NCBI GenBank assembly: GCA_001777015.1
Contig: MFCV01000039.1
Coordinates: forward strand, 1-53,632
From: Candidatus Daviesbacteria bacterium RIFCSPHIGHO2_02_FULL_36_13
Lineage (GTDB): Bacteria > Patescibacteriota > Microgenomatia > Daviesbacterales > UBA10151
DNA: 53,632 nt
Direction: 5' to 3'
In this document: positions 6,964 through 53,608 of the stretch, in pieces
How positions within the stretch are numbered: position 1 is the stretch's first letter
Layout: the number at the start of each line of letters is the position of its first letter
The notes under the pieces: generated by a model
The model's input: the letters and a program-made list of their open reading frames with translations, nothing else
What the model was told of the DNA's origin: nothing
Databases searched by the model: none
Translations under genes and position numbers: made by a program

Positions 6964-8691
6964 ATGAAATATTCAAAGCTTTTTGGAAAAACTATCAAGG
7001 AAACGCCTAGTGATGCAACTTTAATTTCCCATAAACTGCTTTATAAAGGCGGATTCCTGCGTGAATCAACTGCTGGTAGGTATTACCTTTTGCCTTTAGG
7101 ACTAAAAGTCCAGCAAAAAATTCAAAAAATAATTAAAGAAGAGATGGATTCTGCTGAAGCACAAGAATTAATTACTCCAGTTTTACATCCTAAAGCTTTA
7201 TGGGAAGAAACTAATAGAACTAATTCTGTGGGGTTTGAACTAATGAGTATTAAAGATAGAAATGAATTTGAATTTGTTTTAGGCGGAACAGCAGAGGAAA
7301 TGTTGGTAGATTTAGTTAGAAAATTTCAACTAAGTTACAAAGATTTACCTGTTAATTTATATCAATTTTCTATTAAATTTAGGGATGAATTAAGAGCTAG
7401 GGGTGGTTTGCTTAGAGTCAGGGAATTTTTAATGAAAGATGCTTACTCATTTCACGTCTCAGAAGAAGATTTTAAGAAAGAATATGAAAATATGAAAAAA
7501 ACTTATACCAAAATCTTTGAAAGATTGGGTTTAAAAACAATAATTGTTGAATCTGATAATGGTTATATTGGCGGCGAATATTGTCATGAATTTGTAGTGG
7601 AATCAGAGGTTGGTGAGAGTAGGTTTTTAGTTAATCCTGATGGAAGTTATGCAGCTCATGAAGATGTGGTTAAATTTGTGCCTGAAAAGAAGAATATAGC
7701 TGAAAAAGAGGAATCTTTAAAAGAGGTTGAAGCAGTGAGAGGTAAGACTATGGAGGATGGTGCAAAATTTCATAAACTTCCACTTTGGCAGCAGATAAAA
7801 GACGTTTTATTTGTAGATGAAAAAGGTAGATTTATTCTTTCAATAATTAGAGGAGATTATGATGTAAATGAAACCAAGCTTAAGCATATTATTAAGGCAT
7901 ACCAACTCCGTCACGCTACTGAAGATGAAATAAGAGAAAAGATTCATTCAGAACCTGGATTTATTTCCCCTGTTGGAATCAAAGAAATTGTTAAAAAGGG
8001 TATAGAAATTATTATTGTGGCTGATGAAACACTCTCCACTGTTAAAAATTCTTATGGTGGAGCCAATAAAAAGAACAGGGATCTTTTAAATATGAATATG
8101 GGAAGAGATTACAAGCCAGATATTACTTCGGACATAGCTTTAGCAAGAGAGGGAGATTTGGCTCCAGATGGGAGTGGTCCATTAAAAGAAAAAAGAGGGA
8201 TTGAGGTGGGGAATATTTTCCAGCTAGGATTCCATTATTCTTCAAAAATGAAAGGGGCTGAGTTTACAGATGCTGATGGCAGTAAAAAACCATATTATAT
8301 GGGCTGTTATGGAATTGGATTGGGTAGAAGCTTAGCAACGATAGTAGAAGTATTTCATGATGATAAAGGAATAATTTGGCCAGAGAGTGTAGCTCCATAT
8401 CAAGTACATCTAATAGGGCTGGATATGGATGAAGCTGAGAAGGTATATAAGCGAAGCTTGAAAACCTCTGAAGAGGTTTATAAATCCCTTCTAGCAGAAG
8501 GAATTGAAGTCCTTTTTGATGATAGGGATGTCTCTGCTGGAATTAAATTTACAGACGCAGATTTAATAGGAATTCCATATCGGGTTGTAGTTTCCAAAAG
8601 AAATGAAGGAAAATTAGAAATTAAAAGAAGAGATAAAGGTGAAACTGAATTTAAAACACTTGGACAACTCCTAAGTCTGGTTTCTCATTGA
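6964..8691 (+). CDS. proS: Proline--tRNA ligase (with editing domain)
   Basis: KFRDELRARGGLLRVREFLMKDAYSF, GIEVGNIFQLG, MGCYGIG, FTDADLIGIP. Confidence 0.97.
   Translation: MKYSKLFGKTIKETPSDATLISHKLLYKGGFLRESTAGRYYLLPLGLKVQQKIQKIIKEEMDSAEAQELITPVLHPKALWEETNRTNSVGFELMSIKDRNEFEFVLGGTAEEMLVDLVRKFQLSYKDLPVNLYQFSIKFRDELRARGGLLRVREFLMKDAYSFHVSEEDFKKEYENMKKTYTKIFERLGLKTIIVESDNGYIGGEYCHEFVVESEVGESRFLVNPDGSYAAHEDVVKFVPEKKNIAEKEESLKEVEAVRGKTMEDGAKFHKLPLWQQIKDVLFVDEKGRFILSIIRGDYDVNETKLKHIIKAYQLRHATEDEIREKIHSEPGFISPVGIKEIVKKGIEIIIVADETLSTVKNSYGGANKKNRDLLNMNMGRDYKPDITSDIALAREGDLAPDGSGPLKEKRGIEVGNIFQLGFHYSSKMKGAEFTDADGSKKPYYMGCYGIGLGRSLATIVEVFHDDKGIIWPESVAPYQVHLIGLDMDEAEKVYKRSLKTSEEVYKSLLAEGIEVLFDDRDVSAGIKFTDADLIGIPYRVVVSKRNEGKLEIKRRDKGETEFKTLGQLLSLVSH
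8448..8483. repeat. TAAGC-GAA-GCTTG hairpin element in frame in proS
   Basis: TAAGCGAAGCTTG-A-AAACCTC-TGAA-GAGGTTT-A-TAA, with TATAA repeated 33 nt apart. Confidence 0.75.
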
Positions 8692-8725
8692 TTTTAAGAG
8701 CAGTTTGGACTACAATACCTAGCTA

Positions 8726-9835
8726 ATGATACAGAAAAATATTAATAAATTACCTAAATCTGTGGTTGAGGTAACTGTAACTGCTCCATGGGCAGATATA
8801 TCTGCTACCTGGGATCAGACTTTACAAAGATTATCAGCTGATGTAGAAATAGCAGGTTTTAGGAAAGGTCAGGTTCCTATCAACATGGTTGAAACTCAGC
8901 TTGGATCCAAACTTCAGGATGAAGTATTAAAAACTGCCATGCCAAATTTTTTAATAGAAGCTCTTAAAGGTACTGATGTGGTACCAATTGATTATCCAAA
9001 ATATGATCTAGTTAATTTTGTTAAAGGACAAGGTATTCAATTTAAAGCAACTATTACTAATAGACCTGCTGTCAGCGTAGGAAACTACAAAACTATTAAA
9101 ACAGTCAGACCTGCTATTAAGCCTGTAACTGATGAAGAAGTAGGAAAAGTTTTAGACGATCTTTATAAAAGATGGAAAACTAGGCAGCCTGCAGTTAACA
9201 ATCCACAGCCTGCAGCTACACAAAATACACCAGCTGGGTCTGGATCTCTAAATTTCCAAAAGAGTGAGATTGCTTCGTCGCCTGCGGCTCCTCGCAATGA
9301 CGGAGTGGCTGAAGCGCCCGATGATACTTTTGCTAAAGCTATGGGGGCAACATCTTTAGTTGACCTTAAGGATAAAATCAGAAAAGATTTAGAAGCCAAT
9401 GTTAAATACAATAATGAACTTGACTATGAAGAAGCAATCTTGCAGGAAGTTGAGAAGATCACTACTGTTGAGCTGCCTGATATTTTAATTGCTGATGAGC
9501 TAAATAGGATGCTTGTTTCACTTCAAAGGAGAGTAGCAGACATGGGACTTCTTTTAGAGGATTATTTAAAAGGACAAAATAAAACTTTAGAGCAAATTAA
9601 GCAGGAATGGAAGCCACAGGCAGAGAAAAATGTCAGAATGGAATTAGGTTTAGCTGATATCGCAAGACAGGAAAATGTCACAATTTCTGACCTTGAACTT
9701 CAGGCAGAAGTTGATAAAATCACTGATGCCAAAGTCAAAAAACAATTTGAATCACAAGAGCCAAGATTGCACCTAAGGCATGCTCTCCGCCAAACCAGAA
9801 CCTTAGATCTTCTCAAAAAGATGGTAGGAGGTTAA
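8726..9835 (+). CDS. tig: Trigger factor (FKBP domain apparently absent)
   Basis: IAGFRKGQVP ribosome-binding motif and a C-terminal chaperone domain. The middle is a low-complexity linker. Confidence 0.9.
   Translation: MIQKNINKLPKSVVEVTVTAPWADISATWDQTLQRLSADVEIAGFRKGQVPINMVETQLGSKLQDEVLKTAMPNFLIEALKGTDVVPIDYPKYDLVNFVKGQGIQFKATITNRPAVSVGNYKTIKTVRPAIKPVTDEEVGKVLDDLYKRWKTRQPAVNNPQPAATQNTPAGSGSLNFQKSEIASSPAAPRNDGVAEAPDDTFAKAMGATSLVDLKDKIRKDLEANVKYNNELDYEEAILQEVEKITTVELPDILIADELNRMLVSLQRRVADMGLLLEDYLKGQNKTLEQIKQEWKPQAEKNVRMELGLADIARQENVTISDLELQAEVDKITDAKVKKQFESQEPRLHLRHALRQTRTLDLLKKMVGG
9266..9302. repeat. CGTC-type REP-like element in frame in tig (encodes EIASSPAAPRND)
   Basis: Reverse strand reads CGTCATTGCGAGGAGCCGCAGGCGACGAAGCAATCTC, with an ATTGC/GCAAT stem. 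GC-rich. Confidence 0.85.
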
Positions 9836-9836
9836 T

Positions 9837-10166
9837 CTGGACTGTCTATTCTGCAAAATTATAAAAAGGGAAATTCCCTCAAATATAGTACATGAGAATG
9901 ATTCCTTGGTAGCTTTTCCAGATATAAATCCTTCAGCTGACGTACATTTATTAATAGTGCCTAAAGAGCATATTGGAAGAATAGAAGATTTAGGTAAAGG
10001 ATCTGGATCAATATTGGAAGAAGTATACCTGGCTGTTAATAAGTTGGTGGCAGATTTTAATTTAAAAGACAATTTATACAGAGTGGTGGTAAATGGTGGG
10101 AAAGCCCAGCATGTACCCCATTTACATTTTCACCTACTAGGTGGACAATGGAAGAAATACGTTTAA
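9837..10166 (+). CDS. HIT family nucleotide hydrolase (HINT-like), probable CTG start
   Basis: DCLFCKII at the N-terminus and the HLHFHLL triad. An in-frame TAG at 9825 leaves CTG 9837 as the best start. Confidence 0.88.
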   Translation: MDCLFCKIIKREIPSNIVHENDSLVAFPDINPSADVHLLIVPKEHIGRIEDLGKGSGSILEEVYLAVNKLVADFNLKDNLYRVVVNGGKAQHVPHLHFHLLGGQWKKYV

Positions 10167-10181
10167 CCCCGCCCTGCGGGG
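10167..10181. terminator. GC hairpin between HIT and rpsU (terminator or REP-like)
   Basis: CCCCGC-CCT-GCGGGG immediately after the stop. No U-tract. Confidence 0.4.
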
Positions 10182-10211
10182 GGTGAGTCAGGAGGTGTTC
10201 TTTTATACTTT

Positions 10212-10409
10212 ATGTCAATAATAGTTAAAGCAAATCCTGGTGACAGTAGCGATTCTGTTATCAGAAAATTTCAAAAAAAGGTTATTGCTGAAGGTTTAGT
10301 TCAGGAAATCAGAGACAGGTCTGTTTATAAAAAGCCTTCACAACGCCGTCAGGAATATTTGGCTGAAAAACGCCGAAAAATAATGAGAGCCAAAAGATAT
10401 GGTGGATGA
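10212..10409 (+). CDS. rpsU: 30S ribosomal protein S21
   Basis: 65-aa basic protein with IRKFQKKV and YKKPSQRR. Upstream of yqeY as usual. Confidence 0.9.
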   Translation: MSIIVKANPGDSSDSVIRKFQKKVIAEGLVQEIRDRSVYKKPSQRRQEYLAEKRRKIMRAKRYGG

Positions 10410-10863
10410 TATTGCAACTGCTCTAAAGCAAGCTCAGCTCGACAGGGATGAGACTAAAGTATCAACCCTAAGACTTCTTTTATCTGAAATTAAAAATGCA
10501 GAGATTGCTAAAGGTGGAGAGCTTTCCAACGAAGATATAATTTCTGTTGTTCAAAAAGAGATTAAGAAAAGAAAAGAAGCAGCTATTGGTTTTAGATCCG
10601 GAGGTAGGGAAGAATCTGCCTTAAAGGAAGAGGCAGAATCAAAAGTGCTGGAAGTTTATCTCCCTGCTCAAATGGAAGTTGACCAGTTGACTAAAATAAT
10701 TGAAGACACTATAAGCGAAGCTTGCCAGCTCGCGCTGGTAACTGGTTCAGAAAAGCCCTCTTTACAAGACATGGGTAGGATAATAAGATTAGTTATGGAT
10801 AAGGTAAAAGGTCAGGCAGATGGTGGAACAGTTAGTTTATTAGTTAAACAGAAGCTTTCATGA
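10399..10863 (+). CDS. yqeY: GatB/YqeY domain protein
   Basis: LRLLLSEIKN, KKRKEA, YLPAQM, DMGRII, GQADG. Confidence 0.92.
   Translation: MVDDIATALKQAQLDRDETKVSTLRLLLSEIKNAEIAKGGELSNEDIISVVQKEIKKRKEAAIGFRSGGREESALKEEAESKVLEVYLPAQMEVDQLTKIIEDTISEACQLALVTGSEKPSLQDMGRIIRLVMDKVKGQADGGTVSLLVKQKLS
10712..10741. repeat. TAAGC-GAA-GCTTG hairpin element in frame in yqeY
   Basis: TAAGCGAAGC-TTGCCAGC-TCGC-GCTGGTAA, with TAA repeated 27 nt apart. Shares an exact 15-mer with the proS copy. Confidence 0.8.
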
Positions 10864-11270
10864 TAAATATAATTGTAAATTCAGATCCCAGATACAACAT
10901 TAACAAAGATGCTATTAAAATGGCAGTTTCAGATGTTTTGCAAAAGCATCATATCGGGGGAAAGGTTGAGCTTGGGGTAAGTATTGTAGGTGACAGGAAA
11001 ATGCATGAGCTTAATAGAAAATACAGAGGTATTGATTCCACAACAGATATTTTGTCTTTTGCCCTGGAAGATTCAAATCCTGGTAGCTTACAGCATATTC
11101 CAAGAATTGGATTTGTAGCTGCACCTGATAGATGGCTTAGACTTGGGGATATTATTATTTCTTATCCACAGGTAATGGAAGATGCATCAATGGATGGAAT
11201 TTCTGTTGATCAGGAGATAAAAACTTTAGTTGAACATGGTGTAAACCACCTGCTTGGAATCCATCACTGA
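10860..11270 (+). CDS. ybeY: rRNA maturation RNase YbeY
   Basis: LNRKYRG, TDILSF, LGDIIIS, HGVNHLLGIHH. Confidence 0.93.
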   Translation: MINIIVNSDPRYNINKDAIKMAVSDVLQKHHIGGKVELGVSIVGDRKMHELNRKYRGIDSTTDILSFALEDSNPGSLQHIPRIGFVAAPDRWLRLGDIIISYPQVMEDASMDGISVDQEIKTLVEHGVNHLLGIHH

Positions 11271-11271
11271 T

Positions 11272-12846
11272 ATGAGTGCATTTTATTTAAAATACAGACC
11301 CCAGTCTCTGGGAGATTTAATTGGACAGGAAGCCTCTAAAAAGGCACTGATGTCAGCTTTTCAAAATAATAAACTATCTCATGCCTATCTTTTTGTAGGA
11401 CCAAGAGGAACAGGTAAAACTTCCACAGCCAGAATTTTAGCCAAAATGGTTAACTGTTTGGATAAGGATGCGCCTTGTAATAAGTGTACTATTTGTACCT
11501 CTATCACTGATGGATCTAATCTTGACCTGATAGAAATTGATGCTGCCTCAAACAGAGGAATAGAAGATATAAGAGCTTTAAGGGAAAAAATAAAACTTGC
11601 CCCATCGTCTCTTAAGAAAAAAGTCTACATAATTGATGAGGTTCATATGTTAACTACCGAGGCTTTTAATGCACTTTTGAAAACTTTGGAAGAGCCACCT
11701 GCCCATGCTCTTTTTATTCTAGCTACCACAGATGCTTCTAAAATGCCTGCAACGATACTTTCCAGGGTTCAAAGATTAGATTTTAAACTGGCAAATCCTT
11801 CAGAACTTTTGGAGGCTTTGCAAAAAATAATAAAGTCAGAAAAAATTGATATTGATGAAGAGGCTCTAAAATTACTTATTAAAAAATCAGAAGGAAGTTT
11901 TCGGGATGGGGTTAAACTTTTAGATCAAGCCTCCTCCATAGGAGGCAAAATAACTGCTGAAGTTTTGGAAAAAAATCTAAAATCCTCTAACTTTGAAGAG
12001 ATTTTAAGTTTAATGGAAGCTATCAGCAAAAAAGACACAGAAGCATCCCTGCTTTGGATTAATAAACAAACTGAAGAGGGATCTGACAGCAAGGATTTAA
12101 TTTTATCCTTAATGGAAAGTTTAAGATCCCTAATTTTTATAAAGAATGGATTGGGTAGTCAATTGGTAGAGTCAAAAATGATGGCAGAACAGTATCAAAG
12201 TTTAGTCAAAGTTTCAGAAAATTTTACAAATTCTGATTTAACTAAAAATCTGGATAGTTTACAAAAAGCCTTAGAAAAATTGAAAACAACATCAATTCCC
12301 TCACTTCCACTAGAGGTGGCAGTAGTGGAAATATGTTCCGAAGAAAAAATTTCTATTAAGAAAAGCGAAGACGTCGCTGCCAGTGCAGTCCAATCTCTGT
12401 CTGAGCAAGGCGAGTCCGTAGCAGACGAGCCGGTCCGCCAACTGGCGGATGCGAGTTTGATTGGCGAGCACAGCGATGTCGAGCTAACACCATCAGCTGA
12501 TATATCTTTATTAAAAGATAAATGGACTTATGTTTTAGAAACCATCAGGCCATATAATTTTTCGCTGGAAGCACTGCTTAGATCTATAAGTGTTAGAGAG
12601 TGTACTCAAACTTTAGTTTTGATGGAGGTTCCTTATTCTTTCCATCAAAGGATTTTGGAGGCCCCAAAAAATAGGGATCTTTTGGAATCTATTTTTTCTG
12701 AAATTTTAGGAAGAACAATTAAAGTCTCTACTGTCTTAGGCAATAGACCTTCAAGAACAGAAGATGTAGCTAATATAGAGATAGCAGCTGATGATGAAAT
12801 AATCAGAGTAGCTGCAGAAATCTTTAACTCTGACTCTGTAAATTAA
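11272..12846 (+). CDS. dnaX: DNA polymerase III subunit gamma/tau
   Basis: KYRPQ, GPRGTGKTS, zinc-binding Cys residues, EIDAASNRG, IIDEVHML. Start placed at ATG 11272. Confidence 0.97.
   Translation: MSAFYLKYRPQSLGDLIGQEASKKALMSAFQNNKLSHAYLFVGPRGTGKTSTARILAKMVNCLDKDAPCNKCTICTSITDGSNLDLIEIDAASNRGIEDIRALREKIKLAPSSLKKKVYIIDEVHMLTTEAFNALLKTLEEPPAHALFILATTDASKMPATILSRVQRLDFKLANPSELLEALQKIIKSEKIDIDEEALKLLIKKSEGSFRDGVKLLDQASSIGGKITAEVLEKNLKSSNFEEILSLMEAISKKDTEASLLWINKQTEEGSDSKDLILSLMESLRSLIFIKNGLGSQLVESKMMAEQYQSLVKVSENFTNSDLTKNLDSLQKALEKLKTTSIPSLPLEVAVVEICSEEKISIKKSEDVAASAVQSLSEQGESVADEPVRQLADASLIGEHSDVELTPSADISLLKDKWTYVLETIRPYNFSLEALLRSISVRECTQTLVLMEVPYSFHQRILEAPKNRDLLESIFSEILGRTIKVSTVLGNRPSRTEDVANIEIAADDEIIRVAAEIFNSDSVN
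12364..12485. repeat. Long GC-rich fold-back element in frame in the dnaX linker
   Basis: About 61% GC by hand count. Stems 12370-79/12471-80, 12390-95/12459-64, 12399-403/12422-26, and nested TCCGCCA-AC-TGGCGGA. Confidence 0.8.
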
Positions 12847-12861
12847 TTATACCGCCGCAGA

Positions 12862-12890
12862 TTGACTTATCCGATAGTTTGGAGTATTGT
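12862..12890 (+). promoter_or_regulatory. sigma70-type promoter of the giant surface protein
   Basis: TTGACT-17 nt-TATTGT, with an in-frame GTG 7 nt downstream. Confidence 0.55.
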
Positions 12891-12897
12891 GCAAGTT

Positions 12898-15800
12898 GTG
12901 AGAGTTTTTAGAAAATTTATTTCTTCCTTATTAATTACTACCCTTCTTTTCTTTCAAGGATTAATCTATCCAATCATTCCTTTTGTTACCCCAGTTCATG
13001 CAGCTATTATAGGAACGTTTTCTGCAAATGAAACAGTAGCAAATGCAACAACGGGTGCTGCTATTCAAACCTTCACTAATGCCAGTATAACTCCTAATGA
13101 TCCAGCCGGAGCGAACACTCAAACAAATGTTACTGCAGAAACTCAAGCTAATGTTTCAGAAGTTAAAGCCACTAGGATTTTAACAGTTGGTGTACTTCCA
13201 GCTAATGCGGACACTATAACTATTGGTTCATGTGCAGTAACCTTTACAACAACAGCAAGTTCAACTGCAGACGATACTGATTGTGCTGGTGGTGCCATTA
13301 TAGATACAAATCTTGATGCTGGTGATACTAATAGAACAATAGATGAAATAGCTGCAACACTACGCAGTTTATCAAATGTAGCTGATGCTGCTCATGGAAA
13401 TTTGACTGTTGGGGGTTCTGGTACTACCGCCTCTTTTACAACTACCAATACAGAAAATAGTGCTTCTGACATTACATTTACAGATGGCACTGGGGGCGAC
13501 ATAACTGCTACCACTACTACAACTGGAGTAATTCCTGTCGCACAAGTAAGTACTGTAACACCTGCTAATATAGAAGTTGGAGATGTATTTACTGCCACAA
13601 TTAACGGTCTTGCTGTTAACTTTACTGCTACTGCAGGAACTGTTGTAAATGTTACAGATGGTTTAACAACAGCTATTAATGCTAGTGCTCAAGCTAGCAA
13701 TGTGACAGCAGTTGATAATACTACAGAAGTTCAAATTACTTCTGATAGTGCAGGTACTTCTTTTACTATAACTTCTGGAACTACTAATTATGCAGGTGTT
13801 AAACAGGTTGATGATTTAACCCCATCAAATATAGAAGTGGGAGATATATTTACTGTAACTGACGTATCAACAGATCCTGTAAATGTAACAGCTACTTCAA
13901 CTTCCGCAATGACTTTGGTGAATTCTTTAGTCACTGCAGTTAATGGTGCAACTGGAGTAACAGTTGCTTCAAATAGTGCTAATAAATTAAGACTAACAGC
14001 AAATGTTGCTGGAACTGGATTTACAGTAATTCCATCAACAACTAATAGAGTTGCAGTTGCTCAAGTTGTTACTTTTACTCCAGCAAATGTAACAGCAGGA
14101 GAAACATTTAGAGCAATTATAAATGGAACTAATTATGATTATTTAGCGGATTCTGGTAATACAGTAGATACAGTAGTTAGTGCTTTGGCTCTTCTTATGG
14201 ATGCAAATGCAGCCGCAGATTGTACTGAGGATAATAATACAAAGGTTACTTGTACAGCATCTGCAGCAGGAACTGCATTTACAGATGATGTACCTAATGC
14301 AGCAACAGTATTTGATATAACTGCACCTGCAGCTCCATCCATACCAAACCTTGATGATGCAAGTGATTCTGGAACTTCAAATTCAGATAACATCACAAGT
14401 GATACTACGCCAACATTTAGCGGAACAGCTGAGAGTAGTTCAACAGTAAAGCTTTATGATAGCGATGGTACTACTGAAATTGGTAGCGGTACAGCTACAG
14501 GTGGAGATTACAGTATAACTACCTCAGCACTTTCAGATGGAGTACATAGTATTACTGCAAAAACTACTGACACTGAAAATAATACTTCAGCTGCCTCCAG
14601 TGCCTTAGATGTAACTATCAATACATCAGCTCCTTCAGCAGTAGTAACTTATTCTATCAACAGCGCAGTCAAGGATACTGATACTTTGGTAATTACTGCA
14701 ACATTTAGTGAAGATATTGTAAATACTCCAAAAATTGCTATCACAGGAAGTGACACTTTAGCGGCTACTGATATGACTTTTTCTTCTGCTACTGTCTTTA
14801 CTTATAGTCATAATGTGGGAACGGGTAATGGTACTGCCACAGTTGCTTTGAGTGTTGGAGAGGATGCTGCAGGAAATGTAGTAACTTCTGCTCCCACAAC
14901 TGGTGCAACATTTACAGTAGATAATTCAGTTCCTACTATATCTTCTATTACCACCAAAGATACCAGTGGTGATGGCAGGGTAGAGACAGCTACTATTGTC
15001 TTTAATGAAGCAGTTGATGATTCAACTTTCTCAGCAGACGATTTTACCATCGCAGGAGCTGCTGTTACCTCATTTAATTTTGGTACCGCTGATGATGACA
15101 GCTTTGATGTAATTGTGAACGGTGGTGTAGCTGGTACTGAGGCAAAACAAGTAACTTATACTCAAGGTACAGGTGCCGATCTAGCAGATAATCTTTTGGC
15201 AAATGTGGCTAATGGAGATGAATCAGAAACAGATGGAGCAAGCCCGGTACTGCTTTCTGCTAGAACCTTCTCAACTACCCAAATTGACCTTACTTTTAGC
15301 GAGGATTTAGACGGTGCTTCACTAGCAATGTCTGATTTTACTGTAAGTGGATATACTTTAACTGGTGGAGTTAGTGAGCCTTCTGCAGGGGTCGCGAGAT
15401 TAACAGTATCTTCTGCTTTTGCTACTAACGCAACCCCAGCTGTGTCTGTGGTTGGAACAGTTCCTGACCTTGCCTCAAATAATGCGATAACAGTTTCGAA
15501 TGTGATTCCAACTGATGGTGTTGCACCGGTGCTTTCTCCAGTCAGTATTGCATCAGATAATACAATCAGTGCACTATTCGGTAAAATCGGAGCAACTGTT
15601 ATTTTAACCTTTACTGCCAGCGAAACTATTAATGCTCCCACAGTGACTATTACTGGTAGTTCCGTCACACCAACTAATCCAAGTGGGAATAATTGGATAG
15701 CTGCTTACGAGCTAACTATAGCTAACTCAGAAGAAGTGGTTCCTTTCAATATTTCTTTTAGTGATACTTCAGCAAACTCAGGTACTCCTGTGACTGCTAC

Positions 15801-18800
15801 CACGAACAGTTCATCTGTCACCTTTGATAAAACTGTTCCTACTATCCCTGGTATGCCTTCCACTACAACACCTACTAATTCTTCACCTCAGAATTGGAGT
15901 TGGACAGCGTCCTCGGATGTTTTATCAGGTTTTTATCTATATAACTGGAGAGCTGTTCAGGGTGTGACAGAAGTTACTGGTACTAGTAATATCAACTCTG
16001 CCCTCAGTTCCTTAGTAGAAGGTATTTGGAATTTCTTTGTTAAAGCTATAGATAATGCCGGTAATGAAAGTGCGGAGTCAAGTGTTGGGACTGTAACTGT
16101 TGATCAAACTCAACCTGATACTTTTTTAACAGCTTATTCTCCAGATCCTTCCAAAGATAACACTCCTACCTATACAGGAACAGCTACGGATGAAGCCACT
16201 AATATTACTGGAGTTGAGTACAGAGTTGATGGAGGTTCCTGGACTGCTGCTTCTGCCACCGATGGATTATTTGATTCCACCTCAGAAAATTTTACCTTTA
16301 CAATCTCTACTTTATCAGATGATACTCATATAATTGAAATTAGAGCTACAGATGAGGCTGTAAATGTAGAAACTTCCTTTGCATCTGATACTTTGCTGGT
16401 TGATACTACAGTTCCAGATGCTCCAACGATTACTCTTTTAGACCCAATATATATTGGCAATCAAGAAGCAGTAACAATTACAGGTACAGGTGAAGCAGAT
16501 GCTACCTTTACCTATACTATTACAGATACTGATTTAAATGTTGTTTCAGGTAATGGTGTAGTTGGTGGAGATGAATCAATCACTATAAATGCTATCGATG
16601 TCTCTACATTAGTTGATGGAGAATTAACAGCTTCAGTAACTTTAACAGATGCTGCAGGAAATAGTGGTTCAGCTGGTACGGCTATCGCTACTAAAGATAC
16701 AGTTGCACCCGATCTTCCAGGGGTTCCTACTGTTGGAGGAGATAATTTAGTTAACTATGACGAATGGAATGATGGCAGCATTATTGTAGAGGGAACTGCA
16801 GATGCTGGTTCTTTAGTAACTGTTAATATTGAAGATGATTGTGGAAGCAGTACGAGTGGATCTGAACAATTATTAGGTGGTGCAACAGACTATTCAATTA
16901 CAACAAGCGCTGATCTTTGTGATGGGCCATATTATGTGTCAGTAACAGCCACTGATGCCGCAGGAAATATAAGTAGTACACAAGATGGAGCAAGCGTTAC
17001 ACAGGATACGGAAGCTCCAACTTTAAGTCCAGTTTCTATAGCTTCATCTAATTCAAATAGCTCTTTTGCTAGAGTTGGGCATACTGTTACTGTAAGTTTT
17101 ACATCTGATGAAACAATTCAGGATCCCATTGTTACTATTGCTGAACAAAGTGCAACTTTAAATCTACAAATTGGTACTGAATGGAGCGTTTATTACACAA
17201 TGACTGCAAATGAAACAGCAGGTAATGTGCCTTTTACGATTGACTTTAGTGATTTGGCTGGTAATCCTGGAGAACAAGTGAGCGCAGCAGATAATTCACC
17301 AGTTATTTTTGATAAAACAGCTCCTGAAATTACTGAAGTAACATTAAAATATGCAGGTACTTCAAATGATGCTCTTGTTGTACAAAATGAAGATGTACTA
17401 ACATTGACTGCAACTGTGACTGATGATGCTAACCAGGTAGAAATGATGCCTGAGGATATTAGTGCAGACTTTACTGGTTTGGGTGGAACTATCGGTGTTA
17501 ATAACCCAACAAGTTATATAGATGGAGTTGCAACTTGGGATGATATAGAAGTTTCAGGAACTATTGATGAGGATATAACTGTGACAGTTGATGCAAATGA
17601 TCCAGCATCTAATCCTGCTAATCAGGGCTCTATAATAACTGATGCCAATAACAGTACTCCTGTTGGGGTAACAGATTCTGTTACAGTTGTTGAAGATACA
17701 GATTTGGATATTCCTACTTCAGATCTTTTAGAGAATGATACTGATGCTGGGGAAGATAGCTTAACTATAACTGCTGTTTTTAATGCTGTTCATGGAACTG
17801 TTTCTCTTTCTGGAAGCACTATAACATTTACCCCTGAGGCAGGTTATATTGATAATGAAGCAAGTTTTACTTATACAGTTTCTGACGGATTTTTATCAGC
17901 AACAGGTACTGTTAACGTAACAGTTAACCCACCAGTTGCAGAAGATGAGGTTTTACTGGAACCTGAAACAGAAGTTGATAGCTCTCATCCAAATATTGTA
18001 GTTGGAGAAACAGATGAAGATTCGACTATAACTATTCCAGCAGGGGTTAATAATGCCACAATTGATTTAAGTAATTTGATAGAAACCTCAGGAGGTAATG
18101 ATGAGGTAACATTAGATAATTCTATTACTCTAGAATCAGATACTTCTGTTGGAGAGGTCAGTATTGAGATTCCAGCTGGAATAACTATTTCCGGTCCATC
18201 CAGCACTTGGGATGGAGTAGTTAATGCCCCACAAATTCAAGCTAATAGTAGTGTAGCTATTGGTAGCTTGTCTGGATCTACCTCAACTCAAATACTTTCT
18301 GTAATTGAGGTTGGGTTTGGAGATATTCTCCTGACTTTTGATAAAGCTGTAAAGATTGTTATTGAGGGTGGAAATCAGGTTCCTGTAGGGTATTCAAGAG
18401 CAGGGATTTTTACTGAAATAACTAATACTTGTATAGATAATTCTCAAGCTGGTAATGATGCTAATTTAGCTGCTGGAGCTGAATGTAAAATTTATGTTGG
18501 GGGAGATGCTGTTATCTGGACAAAGCATTTTACAAAATTTGTCACTTTTAGTAAAACTGATGGAGCATCTGTTCCGCAGCCTGGTGCACCTACCTACAAT
18601 TCAACCCCTCCAGTATGTAATGATAGTAAACCAGGCGGAGCGCCAAGTTTTGTATCAGCTCAAGCTGGAACAAATTCTGTAACATTGACCTGGACAGGAG
18701 CACCTGATCCTGTAACTTATTACCTGATAACTTATGGAACAACAACTGGTGCCCAAACTTATGGCAATCCAAATGTTGGAGGAAAAGGTTCAACATCCTA

Positions 18801-19113
18801 TACAGTTGGTAATCTTTCAGGAGGACAAACATATTACTTTAGGATAAGAGCTGGAAATGGTTGTGCCCCAGGCAGTTATTCAGGTGAAATTTCAGCTACT
18901 CCTGGTGGAGGAACAGTGTCTGGCACAGCACCAGGATTTGCTGAAGGAGTATTAGGTGCTAAAGCACAAGCAACAAATGATGGAGTTATACAGGAAGTTT
19001 CAGGGGAACAAACAATCACTATACCTGGTGTTTCTTCTGAGGTACAACAAACTCCTAAGCTTGGATTTTTTGGAGCGATCTGGAAATTTATCCTCTCCCT
19101 TTTTGGTAGATGA
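12898..19113 (+). CDS. Giant secreted surface protein with Ig-like repeats, a cadherin-like domain and a C-terminal FN3 domain
   Basis: Signal peptide ending VHA-A, repeated D(T/K)TAP...DAAGN Ig units, LLENDTD cadherin-like motif, FN3 (LTW...VGNLSGGQTYYFRIRA). Likely start is GTG 12898 rather than TTG 12862. Confidence 0.85.
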   Translation: MRVFRKFISSLLITTLLFFQGLIYPIIPFVTPVHAAIIGTFSANETVANATTGAAIQTFTNASITPNDPAGANTQTNVTAETQANVSEVKATRILTVGVLPANADTITIGSCAVTFTTTASSTADDTDCAGGAIIDTNLDAGDTNRTIDEIAATLRSLSNVADAAHGNLTVGGSGTTASFTTTNTENSASDITFTDGTGGDITATTTTTGVIPVAQVSTVTPANIEVGDVFTATINGLAVNFTATAGTVVNVTDGLTTAINASAQASNVTAVDNTTEVQITSDSAGTSFTITSGTTNYAGVKQVDDLTPSNIEVGDIFTVTDVSTDPVNVTATSTSAMTLVNSLVTAVNGATGVTVASNSANKLRLTANVAGTGFTVIPSTTNRVAVAQVVTFTPANVTAGETFRAIINGTNYDYLADSGNTVDTVVSALALLMDANAAADCTEDNNTKVTCTASAAGTAFTDDVPNAATVFDITAPAAPSIPNLDDASDSGTSNSDNITSDTTPTFSGTAESSSTVKLYDSDGTTEIGSGTATGGDYSITTSALSDGVHSITAKTTDTENNTSAASSALDVTINTSAPSAVVTYSINSAVKDTDTLVITATFSEDIVNTPKIAITGSDTLAATDMTFSSATVFTYSHNVGTGNGTATVALSVGEDAAGNVVTSAPTTGATFTVDNSVPTISSITTKDTSGDGRVETATIVFNEAVDDSTFSADDFTIAGAAVTSFNFGTADDDSFDVIVNGGVAGTEAKQVTYTQGTGADLADNLLANVANGDESETDGASPVLLSARTFSTTQIDLTFSEDLDGASLAMSDFTVSGYTLTGGVSEPSAGVARLTVSSAFATNATPAVSVVGTVPDLASNNAITVSNVIPTDGVAPVLSPVSIASDNTISALFGKIGATVILTFTASETINAPTVTITGSSVTPTNPSGNNWIAAYELTIANSEEVVPFNISFSDTSANSGTPVTATTNSSSVTFDKTVPTIPGMPSTTTPTNSSPQNWSWTASSDVLSGFYLYNWRAVQGVTEVTGTSNINSALSSLVEGIWNFFVKAIDNAGNESAESSVGTVTVDQTQPDTFLTAYSPDPSKDNTPTYTGTATDEATNITGVEYRVDGGSWTAASATDGLFDSTSENFTFTISTLSDDTHIIEIRATDEAVNVETSFASDTLLVDTTVPDAPTITLLDPIYIGNQEAVTITGTGEADATFTYTITDTDLNVVSGNGVVGGDESITINAIDVSTLVDGELTASVTLTDAAGNSGSAGTAIATKDTVAPDLPGVPTVGGDNLVNYDEWNDGSIIVEGTADAGSLVTVNIEDDCGSSTSGSEQLLGGATDYSITTSADLCDGPYYVSVTATDAAGNISSTQDGASVTQDTEAPTLSPVSIASSNSNSSFARVGHTVTVSFTSDETIQDPIVTIAEQSATLNLQIGTEWSVYYTMTANETAGNVPFTIDFSDLAGNPGEQVSAADNSPVIFDKTAPEITEVTLKYAGTSNDALVVQNEDVLTLTATVTDDANQVEMMPEDISADFTGLGGTIGVNNPTSYIDGVATWDDIEVSGTIDEDITVTVDANDPASNPANQGSIITDANNSTPVGVTDSVTVVEDTDLDIPTSDLLENDTDAGEDSLTITAVFNAVHGTVSLSGSTITFTPEAGYIDNEASFTYTVSDGFLSATGTVNVTVNPPVAEDEVLLEPETEVDSSHPNIVVGETDEDSTITIPAGVNNATIDLSNLIETSGGNDEVTLDNSITLESDTSVGEVSIEIPAGITISGPSSTWDGVVNAPQIQANSSVAIGSLSGSTSTQILSVIEVGFGDILLTFDKAVKIVIEGGNQVPVGYSRAGIFTEITNTCIDNSQAGNDANLAAGAECKIYVGGDAVIWTKHFTKFVTFSKTDGASVPQPGAPTYNSTPPVCNDSKPGGAPSFVSAQAGTNSVTLTWTGAPDPVTYYLITYGTTTGAQTYGNPNVGGKGSTSYTVGNLSGGQTYYFRIRAGNGCAPGSYSGEISATPGGGTVSGTAPGFAEGVLGAKAQATNDGVIQEVSGEQTITIPGVSSEVQQTPKLGFFGAIWKFILSLFGR

Positions 19114-19126
19114 ATTTTATTTCTTC

Positions 19127-19180: not shown

Positions 19181-19217
19181 AGAAAAGGGTAGTTCCATAT
19201 AGCATATAGGCCTAAAG

Positions 19218-42455: not shown

Positions 42456-42456
42456 G

Positions 42457-43989: not shown

Positions 43990-43992
43990 TAT

Positions 43993-45384
43993 ATGAAAGA
44001 CTATTCAAGATATACAAGCCCTTTTTCTTGGAGATATGGATCTGATGAAATGAGAACCATATTCTCAGAGGAAAATAAATATAAGCTTTGGAGAAAAATC
44101 TGGGTGGAGTTGGCATCTGCTCAGCATAAGCAAGGCTTAGTTTCTAAAGAAGAATTGTCTGATTTAGAAAAACATCAAGAAAACCTTGATATAGAAAGAA
44201 TTTGGGAAATTGAAAAAGATACCAGACACGATGTTGTTGCCGCTATTAAGGAATTTGCAGAAAAAGCAAAAATTGGGGGAGGAAAAATTCATCTGGGAGC
44301 AACCTCCATGGACATTAATGATAATGCAGAAACAATCAGAATTTCTGAAGCCCTTAGTTTGGTGGAAAAAGAGCTAGTTAATTTACTGAAAACCTTTGGT
44401 AAACAGATTGAAAAATATTCGGACTTTACTTGTATGGGTTATACTCATCTTCAAACAGCAGAGCCCACAACTTTAGGATATAGATTTAGCTTTACTGCCC
44501 AGGATTTATTAATGGATTTGGAACAATTGGAATTTGTTAAAAAGAATTTAAAAGCTAAGGGTATGAAAGGTGCAGTTGGAACATCTGCTTCGTATGTAAA
44601 ACTTTTGGATGCTCAGGGTGCTGAAGAAATGGAAAAGATAGTAATGGATAGTTTGGGAATTCAGGCAATTGATATTGCCAATCAAACATACCCAAGAAAA
44701 ATTGATTTATTAGTTTCTAATCTTCTTTCTTCTATTGCGCAAAGTTTAAATAAATTTGCTTTTGATTTAAGAATAATGCAGTCAACAAATTTTGGAGAGT
44801 GGCAGGAGCCATTCGGTAGTCTTCAGGTTGGTTCCTCCGCCATGCCCTTTAAGAAAAATCCAATCAAGAGTGAACAGATTTGTTCACTTTCCAGACTGGT
44901 TGTAAATTTAGGAAGAACTTCTTGGGATAATGCATCCAATATGTTGCTTGAAAGGACTTTGGATGATTCTGCAAATAGAAGAATAGCAATTCCTGAAATG
45001 TTTTTAAGCATAGATGAGATGCTTACCTCTACTAATAATATTGTTGAAGGATTAATTATTAATGAAAAGAGAATTCATAAAAATCTAGAAACATATTTTC
45101 CATTTTCAGCATCCGAAGGAATAATAATTGAGGCAGTCAAAAAAGGTGCTGATAGACAAATGATGCATGAGGTATTACGTGAGATTTCTATGAAAGCTTG
45201 GGAGGCAATACAAGATGGGGAGGGAAATCCCATGGAAGATTTAATAATGAGCAATCAAGAGATTGGTAAATATTTAAGTAGTGAAGAAATACTAAAACTC
45301 ATGGATGCAAAGAATCATACTGGTAGTGCACAAAGTAAAGCTTTGACAATTGCCAAAAAAATTGGTAACTTAAAAAGCCTATAA
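43993..45384 (+). CDS. purB: Adenylosuccinate lyase
   Basis: RHDV, HLGATS, GYTHLQ, GSSAMPFKKNP, ERTLDDSA. Confidence 0.96.
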   Translation: MKDYSRYTSPFSWRYGSDEMRTIFSEENKYKLWRKIWVELASAQHKQGLVSKEELSDLEKHQENLDIERIWEIEKDTRHDVVAAIKEFAEKAKIGGGKIHLGATSMDINDNAETIRISEALSLVEKELVNLLKTFGKQIEKYSDFTCMGYTHLQTAEPTTLGYRFSFTAQDLLMDLEQLEFVKKNLKAKGMKGAVGTSASYVKLLDAQGAEEMEKIVMDSLGIQAIDIANQTYPRKIDLLVSNLLSSIAQSLNKFAFDLRIMQSTNFGEWQEPFGSLQVGSSAMPFKKNPIKSEQICSLSRLVVNLGRTSWDNASNMLLERTLDDSANRRIAIPEMFLSIDEMLTSTNNIVEGLIINEKRIHKNLETYFPFSASEGIIIEAVKKGADRQMMHEVLREISMKAWEAIQDGEGNPMEDLIMSNQEIGKYLSSEEILKLMDAKNHTGSAQSKALTIAKKIGNLKSL

Positions 45385-45418
45385 GCAAAGCTTGAAATTT
45401 TATATAATAAAATTATGA
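45380..45418. repeat. Degenerate TAAGC-family element forming the purB-purE spacer
   Basis: TATAAGCAAAGCTTGA-AATTTTAT-ATA-ATAAAATT-ATGA. First 18 nt match the proS copy at 17/18. Confidence 0.55.
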
Positions 45419-46889: not shown

Positions 46890-46901
46890 TTTTCTAAGCT
46901 T

Positions 46902-49004: not shown

Positions 49005-49019
49005 CTTCCTAATATACCA

Positions 49020-50096: not shown

Positions 50097-50119
50097 ATGG
50101 TAATATTATACTCTCTTTT

Positions 50120-51383: not shown

Positions 51384-51467
51384 TAGCCTAAGTAGCCTAA
51401 AACTAATACAAAATTGACCGTAATATCCATACTTACATCATTACAGCTTATGGTAAAATCTGTCAAT

Positions 51468-52484
51468 ATGCGTTTTGCTGCCATATTAATTTTTATTGGT
51501 TTAATATTTGGAACAATCTTTCTCCTAAAAAATTACAAGGTTCCTCAAAGTATAGAGCAGTCTTTTGTATTTAAAGCCAGCCCAACTCCTACTCCTTTTT
51601 ATGAAATGACTATTCCTTATTTACGAAGTAGAGAATATAAATCCAATTTAGGTGAACTTGAGAAAATTTCAGAAAATGGTAGTTACACTTCCTATTTAAC
51701 TAGTTATACCTCAGATGGATTAAAAATTAATGGACTTTTAACAAAACCTAAAGGTGATATGCCAGAAGGAGGATTCCCTGCTATTGTTTTTATTCATGGA
51801 TATATTCCTCCAACTCTATATAAAACAACAGAAAAATATATTGATCATGTAGATTTTTTAGCCAGGAATGGAATTGTAGTTTTTAAAATAGATTTAAGAG
51901 GACATGGAGATTCAGAAGGAGAGGGCGGCGGAGCTTATTATTCTCCTGATTATATTATTGATGCTCTATCAGCTTTGTCTGCCTTAGATTCATCAGATTT
52001 TGTAAATAAAATTGGACTTTGGGGACACTCTATGGCAGGCAATGTAGTTTTAAGATCTTTTGCTTCAAAGCCTGAAATTCCAGCAGTAGTTATTTGGGCA
52101 GGGGCAGTTTATTCATATGAGGATTTTGTAAAATACAGACTAAGTGATAATAGTTATAGACCTCCTGAATTATCTTCTCAAAGGCAAAAAAGAAGACAGG
52201 AACTTTTTAGTGTACATGGGGAGTTTAATAAAGATAATGCTTTCTGGAAACAAGTCGCCCCAACAAATTATCTAGGGGATATAAAAGGTGCGATCCAGTT
52301 ACATCATGCTATTGATGATGATGTTGTTAATATTGGATACAGTAGGGATTTAATGAAGATCTTAGATCAAACTAAAATCCCACATGAGCTTTTTGAATAT
52401 CCCAACGGAGGACACAATATAAGTGGACTAAGTTTTACTCAAGCTATGCAGAAAACAGTAGAATTTTTCAAAAATACTTTATAA
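51468..52484 (+). CDS. Exported alpha/beta hydrolase (S9 peptidase-like)
   Basis: HGYIPP, GHSMAG nucleophile elbow, DDVV, GGH. Start placed at ATG 51468 after TGGTAAAAT. Confidence 0.88.
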   Translation: MRFAAILIFIGLIFGTIFLLKNYKVPQSIEQSFVFKASPTPTPFYEMTIPYLRSREYKSNLGELEKISENGSYTSYLTSYTSDGLKINGLLTKPKGDMPEGGFPAIVFIHGYIPPTLYKTTEKYIDHVDFLARNGIVVFKIDLRGHGDSEGEGGGAYYSPDYIIDALSALSALDSSDFVNKIGLWGHSMAGNVVLRSFASKPEIPAVVIWAGAVYSYEDFVKYRLSDNSYRPPELSSQRQKRRQELFSVHGEFNKDNAFWKQVAPTNYLGDIKGAIQLHHAIDDDVVNIGYSRDLMKILDQTKIPHELFEYPNGGHNISGLSFTQAMQKTVEFFKNTL

Positions 52485-52524
52485 ATGCTTGACAAAATAA
52501 ATTGAAAGTGAGATTGTTATATTA

Positions 52525-53001
52525 ATGATCAAAAATCTAATTTTAGGACTTGTGGTATTAGCAGTACTTGGTTTAGGGTATATGATGTTTTTTAATAACA
52601 AACAAACTCAACCAGCATCAACAACTGTCATAAAAGTAACCAGCCCTTCAGCCAGTCTCTCAGCAAGTCCTTCAGACATATTAGTCAATCTTTCAGAACA
52701 GAATGAATCAAGCCAGTCAGGTACAGCTACATTAACTGAAGCTAATGGGAAAGTAAAAGTAACACTTAAGCTAACAGGTGCACCAAAGGATGCTGCCCAG
52801 CCTGCGCATATTCATAAAGGAGCTTGTCCTGATGTGGGGGCAGTACTGCATCCTCTTAACTCTCCTGTAAATGGTATGTCTGAAACAATTCTTGATACTA
52901 CATTTGCCAAGTTAAAAACTGAACTTCCTCTTGGTATAAATGTTCACAAATCAGCAGCTGAATCAAAAGTCTATGTCTCCTGCGGTGATCTAAAATTCTA
53001 A
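52525..53001 (+). CDS. Exported CHRD/SOD-like His-motif protein
   Basis: TM anchor, SGTATL, QPAHIH.G.C, INVH, SCGD. Confidence 0.7.
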   Translation: MIKNLILGLVVLAVLGLGYMMFFNNKQTQPASTTVIKVTSPSASLSASPSDILVNLSEQNESSQSGTATLTEANGKVKVTLKLTGAPKDAAQPAHIHKGACPDVGAVLHPLNSPVNGMSETILDTTFAKLKTELPLGINVHKSAAESKVYVSCGDLKF

Positions 53002-53271
53002 GAAGGCATTACATTTATAGCACCAGAGCCAGTTGTAGTCACATTTGTGAGGTTTTACAAAAGGGTGATCTGAGCTTTTAAAATGTTCGGTATTGTGAGC
53101 ATTGTGTGATTCACAGCAAAAAACTTTGCCGCAGGTTAAACAAATCCTTAAGTCTTCGTTAAAACCACAAACTTCACAAGCATCTTTTTCTGAGGTGGTG
53201 TCCTCTTTTAGATCAGCTATATGAGGGCACTCAGCCTTTTTAATATGTTTCCAATCTCCAACTCCAGCCAT
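52990..53271 (-). CDS. Stand-alone UBP-type zinc finger protein
   Basis: C.H, CxxC, LRICLTCG.V.CC.S...H...H, W.WCY. Confidence 0.85.
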   Translation of the reverse strand: MAGVGDWKHIKKAECPHIADLKEDTTSEKDACEVCGFNEDLRICLTCGKVFCCESHNAHNTEHFKSSDHPFVKPHKCDYNWLWCYKCNAFLEF

Positions 53272-53315
53272 AGTCCGATTATACTATATAATTTTCTATT
53301 TGGTATAATTTGGGT

Positions 53316-53552
53316 ATGAAAGAAAGATGGAGAAATATCAGGGTGGCTTTAGGAGTACTTATTCTTGCTTCAGCTTTTGTTGGAAATAGAGGTGTAGTAA
53401 ATCAGGAGAATTCTCCTGCAAAAGCAGCTCAACCTCCTCAGTCTTTATTCATTCCTCCAACTCTCAGATCCCTAATGTTTGAAATAGGTGGTTATGTTAT
53501 CCCTGAAAAACTAGGTGTTAGATCCTATCCAAGTGCTAATAAGTTTGACTAG
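53316..53552 (+). CDS. Small exported hypothetical protein
   Basis: Basic N-terminus plus a hydrophobic helix. ATG lies 6 nt after TGGTATAAT. Confidence 0.5.
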   Translation: MKERWRNIRVALGVLILASAFVGNRGVVNQENSPAKAAQPPQSLFIPPTLRSLMFEIGGYVIPEKLGVRSYPSANKFD

Positions 53553-53572
53553 ACAATAATCCCCAAAAGTCC

Positions 53573-53608
53573 TAAGCAGAGCTTGCCTGTTTTCTGCGAA
53601 AAAGGTAA
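53573..53608. repeat. Intergenic TAAGC-family element
   Basis: TAAGCAGAGC-TTGCCT-G-TTTTC-TGC-GAAAA-AGGTAA, with TAA repeated 33 nt apart. Confidence 0.7.

Follow-up and report, generated by a model that had tools for sequence, protein, structure and literature searches.

A very small hairpin-forming repeat inserted at TAA sites in genes and gene junctions of Candidatus Daviesbacteria and other Microgenomates

Background

The closest described relatives of the repeat reported here are small palindromic repeats of other bacteria. Repetitive extragenic palindromic (REP) sequences are described as palindromes of 20-40 nt tagged with GTAG or CGTC, which are found for the most part 3′ of genes and have a link to REP-associated tyrosine transposases (RAYTs) (PMC3733652; PMC3116915); the first of these sources adds that they sometimes supply a stop codon and sometimes lie within genes. 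The same source gives miniature inverted-repeat transposable elements (MITEs) a length of 70-300 bp with inverted ends of 15-30 bp (PMC3733652), and presents the Rickettsia palindromic elements (RPEs), tagged with CGTC, as the in-frame counterparts of REPs in Rickettsia (Ogata et al. 2000/2002, as cited in PMC3733652). Here we describe a smaller repeat, the TAA element, found in a 53,632-nt stretch of DNA (the window) from Candidatus Daviesbacteria bacterium RIFCSPHIGHO2_02_FULL_36_13. It joins a constant mini-hairpin (HP1) to a second, variable hairpin (HP2) between TAA motifs.

The window is one whole contig (C39) of the host genome, which comprises 963,675 bp in 49 contigs with a G + C content of 35% and a completeness of 96%. 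A preliminary description, made from the letters of the window, had recognised no named family in the repeat, and we likewise found none. Rfam gave no match to the element at the gathering score, with just two tRNAs detected in 85 kb (the window and four element-rich loci), and a literature search, with supplementary files outside its reach, returned no description of such repeats in the candidate phyla radiation (CPR), Patescibacteria or Daviesbacteria.

Four copies of the element in the window

Judged by sequence comparison, four stretches of the window are genuine copies of a tiny element that forms hairpins and is cleanly inserted at TAA sites, even in essential genes. The sequences listed in the preliminary description were all confirmed: TAAGCGAAGCTTG is located at 8448 in proS and at 10712 in yqeY, TAAGCAAAGCTTG at 45382 between purB and purE, and TAAGCAGAGCTTG at 53573 in intergenic DNA. 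The stretch TATAAGCGAAGCTTG has the same letters in both genes, proS and yqeY, but its frames differ: it is read TAT AAG CGA AGC TTG in the former and ATA AGC GAA GCT TGC in the latter. The flanking TAAs are 33 nt apart in copies 1 and 4 and 27 nt apart in copy 2; in copy 3 the spacing is 34 nt, from TAA to TGA.

The motif TAAGCNNNGCTTG was found four times in the window, always on the + strand, against 0.19 expected, and none of 100 dinucleotide-preserving shuffles contained four, so that its frequency lies well above a shuffled control. A search of the window with a relaxed pattern gave no further convincing copies.

Evidence for insertion at individual sites

Orthologs in related genomes had clean empty sites exactly where the preliminary description predicted them. 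The 33 nt of copy 1 were missing from all 11 proS orthologs (NF006625, 628 bits) recovered from relatives. In relative G017 the empty site reads GAA GCT GAA AAA GTA TAT AAG directly followed by TTA CTC; the filled site in the window reads GAA GCT GAG AAG GTA TAT AAG, then the insert CGA AGC TTG AAA ACC TCT GAA GAG GTT TAT AAA, then TCC CTT, with TATAA on both sides. Directly upstream of copy 1 (~8424-8446), proS of the window lacks six codons that are found in 9 of the 11 orthologs, leaving a net gain of 5 residues in the helix; this loss may be a compensating deletion.

The 27 nt (9 residues) of copy 2 were absent from 29 of 29 yqeY orthologs (PF09424, 132 bits). Removal of these 27 nt, from TAA to TAA, yields ACT ATA ACT GGT..., with the length of the orthologs and the first 10 bases shared. 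In the yqeY ortholog of G015 (L111), a separate insertion of 27 nt (9 residues) lies three codons 5′ of the window site; this insert, ACG GAG TTA GAG GCC AAA GGT CTC ATA, falls outside the TAA element family and has the look of a partial duplication or of sequence grafted from a neighbour.

At the purB/purE junction, the element was missing from the 90 nt before purE at all 19 related loci having both genes, where the junctions are a few bases long or overlap as ATGA. Deletion of 34 nt from the window restores ...CTA TGA AAA, that is, the ATGA overlap. A longer form of the element, in a gene for a GT2-PMT membrane protein on contig C45, was absent from 19 of 19 orthologs, a close one showing a 17-residue gap, and is flanked by TATAA. 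No ortholog of the 80-aa open reading frame (ORF) beside copy 4 was found in 40 genomes of the family.

Direct repeats of TAA or TATAA thus flank the element at 3/3 testable window sites, and of TATAA at the C45 site, in agreement with the likeness to a target duplication noted in the preliminary description. By comparison with their orthologs, three of the four window copies (proS, yqeY and purB/purE) are proven insertions, each between TAA or TATAA direct repeats. Insertion is precise at TAA/TATAA and leaves the motif on both sides, and where the site is a stop codon, the stop is regenerated. The presence of TATAA on both sides fits target duplication and insertion in the style of IS200/IS605, 3′ of a fixed target of 4-5 nt that resembles the cleavage site at the right end, equally well. 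None of the tested insertion sites was filled in another genus; the insertions are therefore younger than the genera, though the family spans the class.

Two further ideas on the origin of these sites were dropped. One took HP2 to derive from the target, since in proS its 3′ half is similar to the flank upstream (13/18); yqeY shows nothing alike. A reciprocal empty site upstream of proS in G009 (L004) was rejected, the region not being syntenic.

Structure of the unit

The unit can be written as TA-TAA followed by GC-RNA-GC-TTG-(stem-loop-stem)-TAA, in which HP1 is constant over 11 nt (AAGC-RNA-GCTT, with a loop of purine, any base and A) and the sequence of HP2 is free; the payload of the short forms is 21-31 nt. 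The search pattern left the loop free, and among the 35 copies that it found in the host genome the third loop base was A in all 35 and the first was a purine in 33 (G-N-A in 12, A-N-A in 21). Position -1 was A in 26 of 35. DNA mini-hairpins of the GCGNAGC type are described as extraordinarily stable, with a sheared pair that depends on the loop A (PMC13037366; PMC3201870), and the conserved loop A fits such a pair.

HP2 of the 35 copies forms on average 7.3 pairs, compared with 5.2 at 4993 random TTG sites (counted from the TTG); at least 7 pairs were formed by 71% of the copies versus 17% of the random sites (Mann-Whitney p = 1.6e-12). It terminates in TAA, TAG or TGA in about 30 of 35 copies, and this end pairs with TTG only via G.T wobbles, on the element strand. 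On both strands, every window copy folds as a pair of neighbouring hairpins, although the z-scores of single copies are modest (-1.2 to -3.8). RNAalifold run on 43 long forms gave only the invariant HP1, the remainder folding alternatively, and single-sequence folds with explicit variants were used instead.

HP1 is common to copies whose HP2 are unrelated, and HP2 of the four window copies are unrelated among themselves and to the right end of the canonical long form described below. The second hairpin is a real feature of the family, and the fixed mini-hairpin with a variable, paired second stem holds as originally proposed. Because window copies lacking the right-hand inverted repeat are nonetheless inserted, the data support a unit defined by its structure, in which any second hairpin may follow the constant mini-hairpin, and not by inverted ends.

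The canonical long form, variants and tandem arrays

The four window copies are short variants of a commoner canonical form of about 57 nt, which the preliminary description had missed. This form, TATAAGCGAAGCTTGAAAAC...GCTTTCAAAC..GTTTATAA, is the commonest member in related genomes (45 instances, 43 distinct). Its length of 57 nt is measured to the outer ends, with 51 nt between the TATAA repeats, and it forms a strong fold (mean z -3.7, n = 43, mononucleotide shuffles). The right end mirrors the left except that A:T takes the place of the G:C pair in the mini-hairpin (TATAAACGAAGTTTG), which gives inverted ends of ~18 bp, and compensated variants of the outer stem were found as AAACAAAGT/ACTTTGTTT, AAACTTTCA/TGAAAGTTT and AAACTTCG/CGAAGTTT. 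A 30-nt consensus short form consists of both canonical ends fused, and what the four window copies retain is the left mini-hairpin plus the TTG...TAA closure alone. When the right end served as the search anchor, six real long forms came up in the host genome, five with an intact mini-hairpin and one with a compensated AAGA...TCTT.

The complete genome of one relative (G005) contains direct tandem arrays of 24-, 27- and 33-nt units sharing TAA, as expected if each end of the element recreates the target. Three of its arrays (G005:C1 660872-660960, 653917-653970 and 757261-757340) are mosaics of 27-33-nt units that combine one mini-hairpin with differing second hairpins; the layout recalls repeats and spacers, at a size far too short for CRISPR. 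A 30-nt tandem array in the host genome (C44:17564-17634, TTTCACCCTTATAAGCAGAGCTTCAAAGGG...) has the same mini-hairpin followed by C in place of G.

Copy number and distribution

The oriented pattern gave 35 copies in the host genome, against 2 and 1 for the flank-swapped patterns TAAGC..GCTTA and CAAGC..GCTTG. The host genome has 73 AAGCNNNGCTT sites, and most of those with G next share further sequence. The pattern search, extended to related genomes as the preliminary description had suggested, found 3-38 copies in each of 24 sampled genomes of the same family, every one from a different genus, while a reversed-pattern control gave 0. Among 201 genomes of the class, at least 10 copies were present in several families (f1, f3, f13, f16, f19 and f29), most other families being at the control level; the tally includes one unpublished genome (G105), and no conclusion rests on it.

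Scanned for exact 19-mers, 185,579 species genomes gave 73 stretches, about 30 of them in records named Candidatus Daviesbacteria and the remainder in Levyi-, Woese-, Roizman- and Shapirobacteria, plus scattered single hits. By named records, therefore, the hosts are Candidatus Daviesbacteria and other Microgenomates, ultra-small bacteria of groundwater. Viral contigs gave 0 matches to the element.

CPR bacteria have tiny genomes with few recognised mobile elements, and precise insertion of an element of only 27-57 nt has taken place in them repeatedly, in genes, including those of aminoacyl-tRNA synthetases and ribosomal protein L1, as well as in tight gene junctions. It sets a lower size limit for insertion-type repeats, and it supplies new intergenic spacers, stop codons and start contexts along with small loop insertions in proteins. 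For annotation, it accounts for odd inserts of 7-17 residues and for hairpins between overlapping genes in Microgenomates genomes.

Position relative to genes

Overlap with genes was assessed from crude ORF calls, and the orientation classes were read by hand. Seventeen of the 35 host-genome copies overlap ORFs, 13 in sense and 4 in antisense; of the intergenic copies, 13 run in the direction of the adjoining genes, 1 is antisense and 4 are in divergent spacers. In addition to proS, yqeY and the GT2-PMT gene, the gene hosts include argS (ArgRS), another class-I tRNA synthetase gene, a PrgI-family protein gene, an OmpR-type regulator gene (antisense) and rplA, where the copy lies in the N-terminal extension of ribosomal protein L1.

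In-gene sense copies are usually read as TAT AAG CGA AGC TTG AAA. The frame ATA AGC GAA GCT TGA stops at TGA, and three genes end thus; the yqeY copy uses the ATA AGC GAA GCT frame but has the TTGCC variant instead. In genes, only in-frame, stop-free copies survive, as inserts of 21-51 nt translated into 7-17 extra residues. The regeneration of the stop codon at TAA sites would make the element easily tolerated under any mechanism.

At two loci (C46:12383-12440 of the host genome and L038:2760-2835) the element lies between the Shine-Dalgarno sequence (AAGGAGG) and the start codon, parting them by 30-57 nt. Compact folding of the element probably allows this position by bringing Shine-Dalgarno and ATG together.

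Such positions raise the possibility of an mRNA motif selected by the host, an intercistronic hairpin that would stabilise or process transcripts or hold the Shine-Dalgarno near the start, with its spread by insertion being secondary. Many copies sit precisely between one gene's stop and the start of the next or, as on C46 and L038, between Shine-Dalgarno and ATG; the wobbles are G.U-compatible on the sense strand; and for known REPs, which mostly lie 3′ of genes, action at the RNA level has been proposed (PMC3733652). Orientation in the host genome is also biased, with 26 sense versus 5 antisense and 4 divergent copies (binomial p = 1.9e-4), but selection by itself would be expected to produce such a bias, since the TAA stop is kept and stops occur in fewer frames, and G005 shows none. 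No plausible RNA role is apparent for the copies in proS, yqeY, argS, the class-I tRNA synthetase gene and rplA, no tested site is conserved between genera and Rfam gave no match. We therefore consider a host-selected motif very improbable.

Two other functional readings were rejected. A tRNA intron was considered for the copy at C24 147, and ARAGORN placed this copy 17 nt upstream of tRNA-Lys. A promoter reading (TTGAAA/TTGCCT ... TATAAT-like) fails as a general explanation, the spacing ranging from 8 to >30 nt among copies. HP2 of copy 4 (53583-53611, at the contig end) happens to spell TTGCCT-17 nt-TAAAAT, a good sigma-70-like promoter spacing, and HP2 of a host-genome copy on C44 near 72668 (minus strand), upstream of a gene, has the same TTGCCT-17 nt-TAAAAT spacing.

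Search for the enzyme and possible mechanisms of spread

Five transposase families were searched in the host genome, of which Y1_Tnp (IS200-like) was the sole one present, with two genes (Table 1); this 96%-complete genome gave no DDE_Tnp_1, DDE_Tnp_4, DDE_3 or TnpB zinc ribbon, the search not extending to rve, IS110, Mutator and others. In the class, Y1 was present in 14 of 15 genomes with at least 10 copies of the element versus 114 of 186 others (Fisher p = 0.012, uncorrected for relatedness). Many relatives have several Y1 genes of ~225 aa, the highest number in one genome being 19.

We tentatively favour the reading that the element is a non-autonomous selfish mini-insertion element of Microgenomates, moved via a folded single strand by an HUH-type route. 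A trans-acting enzyme would copy or move the element by recognising its folded top strand, with HP1 as a handle beside the TAA cleavage or target site, and the process would resemble the one by which HUH tyrosine (Y1) transposases mobilise REP and IS200/IS605-type elements. The preliminary description had proposed a structure-defined mobile element recognised as single-stranded DNA (ssDNA). A dispersed, insertion-type, structure-defined element is what we found; its recognition as ssDNA we infer from strand-specific features, namely the G.T wobble at TTG/TAA and the loop A in 35/35 copies.

A number of observations weigh against an HUH/ssDNA route. The two host Y1 genes and three in G005 are bracketed by their own GC-rich hairpins (CACCCTTGGGGTG and GGGGTTGAACCCC in the host), which are gene-specific and in direct orientation like IS200 ends. 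No element was found within 1.5 kb at 12/12 Y1 loci of relatives, no transposase neighbours at 7 element clusters in relatives, and no autonomous copy with a left end, an ORF and a right end in 73 loci. Within the family, the copy number of the element and the number of Y1 genes are not correlated (rho 0.06). In G089, which is 96% complete, 23 copies occur without any Y1 candidate, and the Y1-rich genomes G128, G175 and G027 carry background numbers of the element. IS200/IS605 elements are expected to show a leading/lagging orientation bias through insertion into the lagging-strand template, and the complete genome G005 has none, with 19 leading versus 19 lagging copies (many of them tandem and hence not independent). 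No strain with an empty proS or yqeY site was seen among the joints listed for contigs from four public runs (6900-11300), and window-identical contigs span both sites, a result that is neutral as regards recent mobility. The co-occurrence with a transposase or nuclease that the preliminary description had raised was thus not convincingly found. The Y1 genes show no link to the element. We hold the HUH/ssDNA route as the best single mechanism, with more doubt than conviction.

A serious rival is an enzyme-free, templated insertion. The stable mini-hairpin would stall a polymerase, and the nascent ...TA(TA)A end would switch to the TAA/TATAA of another copy, copy to the terminal TAA and return, giving precise insertion between short direct repeats; similar slippage would build tandem arrays and mosaics. 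Mini-hairpins of the GCGAAGC type are indeed reported to pause polymerases, and to occur at ssDNA priming sites (PMC13037366). The direct repeats vary as microhomology would (TAA in yqeY, TATAA in proS, TATAA/TATGA in purB-purE), and the abundant 24-, 27- and 33-nt arrays, some mixing one HP1 with different HP2, the even strand distribution in G005, the lack of a linked transposase and the 23 copies of G089 without Y1 all agree with template switching at TAA. However, a microhomology of 3-5 nt is a very small basis for events that recur precisely across the genome, HP1 and its loop A (35/35) are conserved across genera, suggesting recognition by a protein, and unrelated hairpins elsewhere in the genome have not spread likewise, as far as can be said from no systematic test. 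On balance we regard hairpin-stalled template switching as unlikely.

A related proposal, which we also find doubtful, is that the GC-RNA-GC mini-hairpin is a portable handle, and that any adjoining hairpin closed by TTG...TAA may be copied to a new TAA site by a new ssDNA-acting enzyme or by polymerase template switching. If so, the element would be the smallest structure-defined mobile DNA known (payload 21-31 nt), independent of inverted ends and of all known transposases, and loops of 7-17 residues would be steadily added to essential CPR proteins. A mover that was a new enzyme or a polymerase-switch process would bear on the general spread of REP-like DNA.

The near-perfect inverted ends of the canonical 57-nt and 30-nt forms suggest instead a double-strand MITE, in which a DDE transposase (IS5/PIF-like with a TAA, or IS630-like with a TA duplication) would bind the ~18-bp ends TATAA(G/A)CGAAG(C/T)TTGAAAG, the window copies being decayed or rearranged. 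The TAA/TATAA repeats that flank insertions, the occurrence of both orientations and the lack of replication-strand bias in G005 agree with this. However, the proS and yqeY copies have no right-hand inverted end and are nevertheless clean, unit-length insertions; the three DDE families searched and an autonomous copy were not found, within the scopes given above; and the size is far under the 70-300 bp given for known MITEs (PMC3733652). A DDE MITE is accordingly a distinctly improbable source of the family, and it and the host-selected RNA motif are less likely than template switching.

Coordinates and other features of the window

The coordinates of the window copies and of the two host Y1 genes are collected in Table 1.

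Table 1. Positions of the TAA element copies, their parts and the Y1 genes (window positions unless a contig is named)
Feature	Position	Strand	Remarks
Copy 1, in proS	8446..8483	+	Translated Y-K-R-S-L-K-T-S-E-E-V-Y-K; TATAA repeats 8446-8450 and 8479-8483
Copy 1 HP1 (constant mini-hairpin)	8449..8459	+	AAGC-GAA-GCTT, includes GCGAAGC
Copy 1 HP2 (variable hairpin)	8458..8483	+	TTGAAAACCTCT / AGAGGTTTATAA; core stem 8462-8468 with 8473-8479; closure TTG...TAA
proS 33-nt insertion	8451..8483	+	One among several equivalent placements
Copy 2, in yqeY (PF09424)	10710..10741	+	Translated I-S-E-A-C-Q-L-A-L-V-T; TAA 10712-10714 and 10739-10741
Copy 2 hairpins	HP1 10713-10723; HP2 10722-10741	+	HP2 = TTGCCAGC-TCGC-GCTGGTAA
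yqeY 27-nt insertion	10715..10741	+	One equivalent placement
Copy 3, purB-purE spacer	45380..45418	+	Occupies the entire spacer; HP1 45383-45393
Copy 3 repeats	TATAA 45380-45384; TATGA 45414-45418	+	34 nt apart
Copy 3 codons	TAA 45382-45384; ATG 45415-45417	+	purB stop; purE start
Copy 4, intergenic	53573..53608	+	Adjoins contig end; 21 nt 3′ of the stop codon of an 80-aa ORF
Copy 4 parts	HP1 53574-53584; HP2 53583-53608	+	HP2 with one bulge; TAA 53573-53575 and 53606-53608
Y1 gene 1	C7:16905-17549 (L002:1285-1929)	minus	Intact, 214 aa; HUH and Tyr motifs by eye; PF01797 26.9 bits; below RAYT model threshold
Y1 gene 2	C27:26114-26608 (L001:1303-1797)		164 aa; C-terminal Tyr region apparently missing

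Two other features of the window were recorded. A GC-rich stretch of ~37 nt (9266-9302, the TTGCTTCGTCGCCTGCGGCTCCTCGCAATGACGG region) lies between Trigger_N and Trigger_C in the trigger factor ORF (8726-9835). The depth of metagenome contigs (four runs) on this stretch was ~190-2500, compared with ~3-150 in other bins, so that the stretch belongs to another, far more widespread mini-repeat family lying in frame in a gene. At 12862-19113, a 2083-aa ORF contains Ca2+-stabilised adhesin repeats (NF033510, below cut-off).

Comparison with known systems

The TAA element shares many properties with the REP/REPIN-RAYT system as its sources describe it: imperfect palindromes of 20-40 nt, high in copy number, non-autonomous and often just 3′ of genes (Nunvar 2010 as cited in, and Bertels & Rainey 2011, PMC3116915; Di Nocera 2013, PMC3733652), with ends that can supply a stop codon, occasional in-gene copies, clustering and mutual adjacency, and presumed handling as a folded single strand. 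It differs in having no GTAG or CGTC tag, its flanks being (T)A-TAAGC and ...TAA, and in being bipartite, with a constant mini-hairpin of 3-4 bp and a free second hairpin. Unlike REPs, its copies are mostly single or in direct tandem and not in inverted doublets, about half of them (17/35) overlap ORFs, and Y1 genes are flanked by other hairpins and not by this element.

RPEs are several times longer than the TAA element. The accounts of them resemble what we found, in that palindromic repeats lie in frame in essential genes whose reading frame stays open and which are presumably functional, and also occur between genes; their host Rickettsia belongs to another phylum and by the same accounts they carry the CGTC tag, whereas the in-gene inserts of the TAA element are only 21-51 nt.

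The small dispersed repeats (SDR) of Nostoc, said to have been described by Elhai and colleagues in 2008, are reportedly 21-27 nt long, hairpin-forming and mobile-looking, with no known enzyme. Both families can be under 30 nt and form hairpins, and they differ in sequence, host phylum and target. A likeness to integron attC sites, with their AAC...GTT cores, was rejected, the core sites not fitting. The 41-bp target palindrome described for Halothiobacillus neapolitanus, GGGaaGCTT-GAAAaACC--...GGTaTTTCgAAGC-gCCC, has GAAGCTTGAAAAACC-like letters as in the element, which may be coincidence.

With the bacterial MITEs (Correia/NEMIS, RUP, Nezha and others) as described in PMC3733652, the 57-nt form shares terminal inverted repeats (~18 bp in the element), short direct repeats and the lack of coding capacity. 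It differs from them in its length of 27-57 nt versus 70-300 bp, in the existence of one-ended inserted variants and in that no parent insertion sequence was found (PMC3733652 for the MITE values). The TAA element thus behaves like a REP, RPE or MITE but fails their defining tests, namely the tag, a flanked RAYT, inverted doublets and size. What is new here is a bipartite, TAA-targeted and unusually small family among the selfish palindromic repeats of bacteria.

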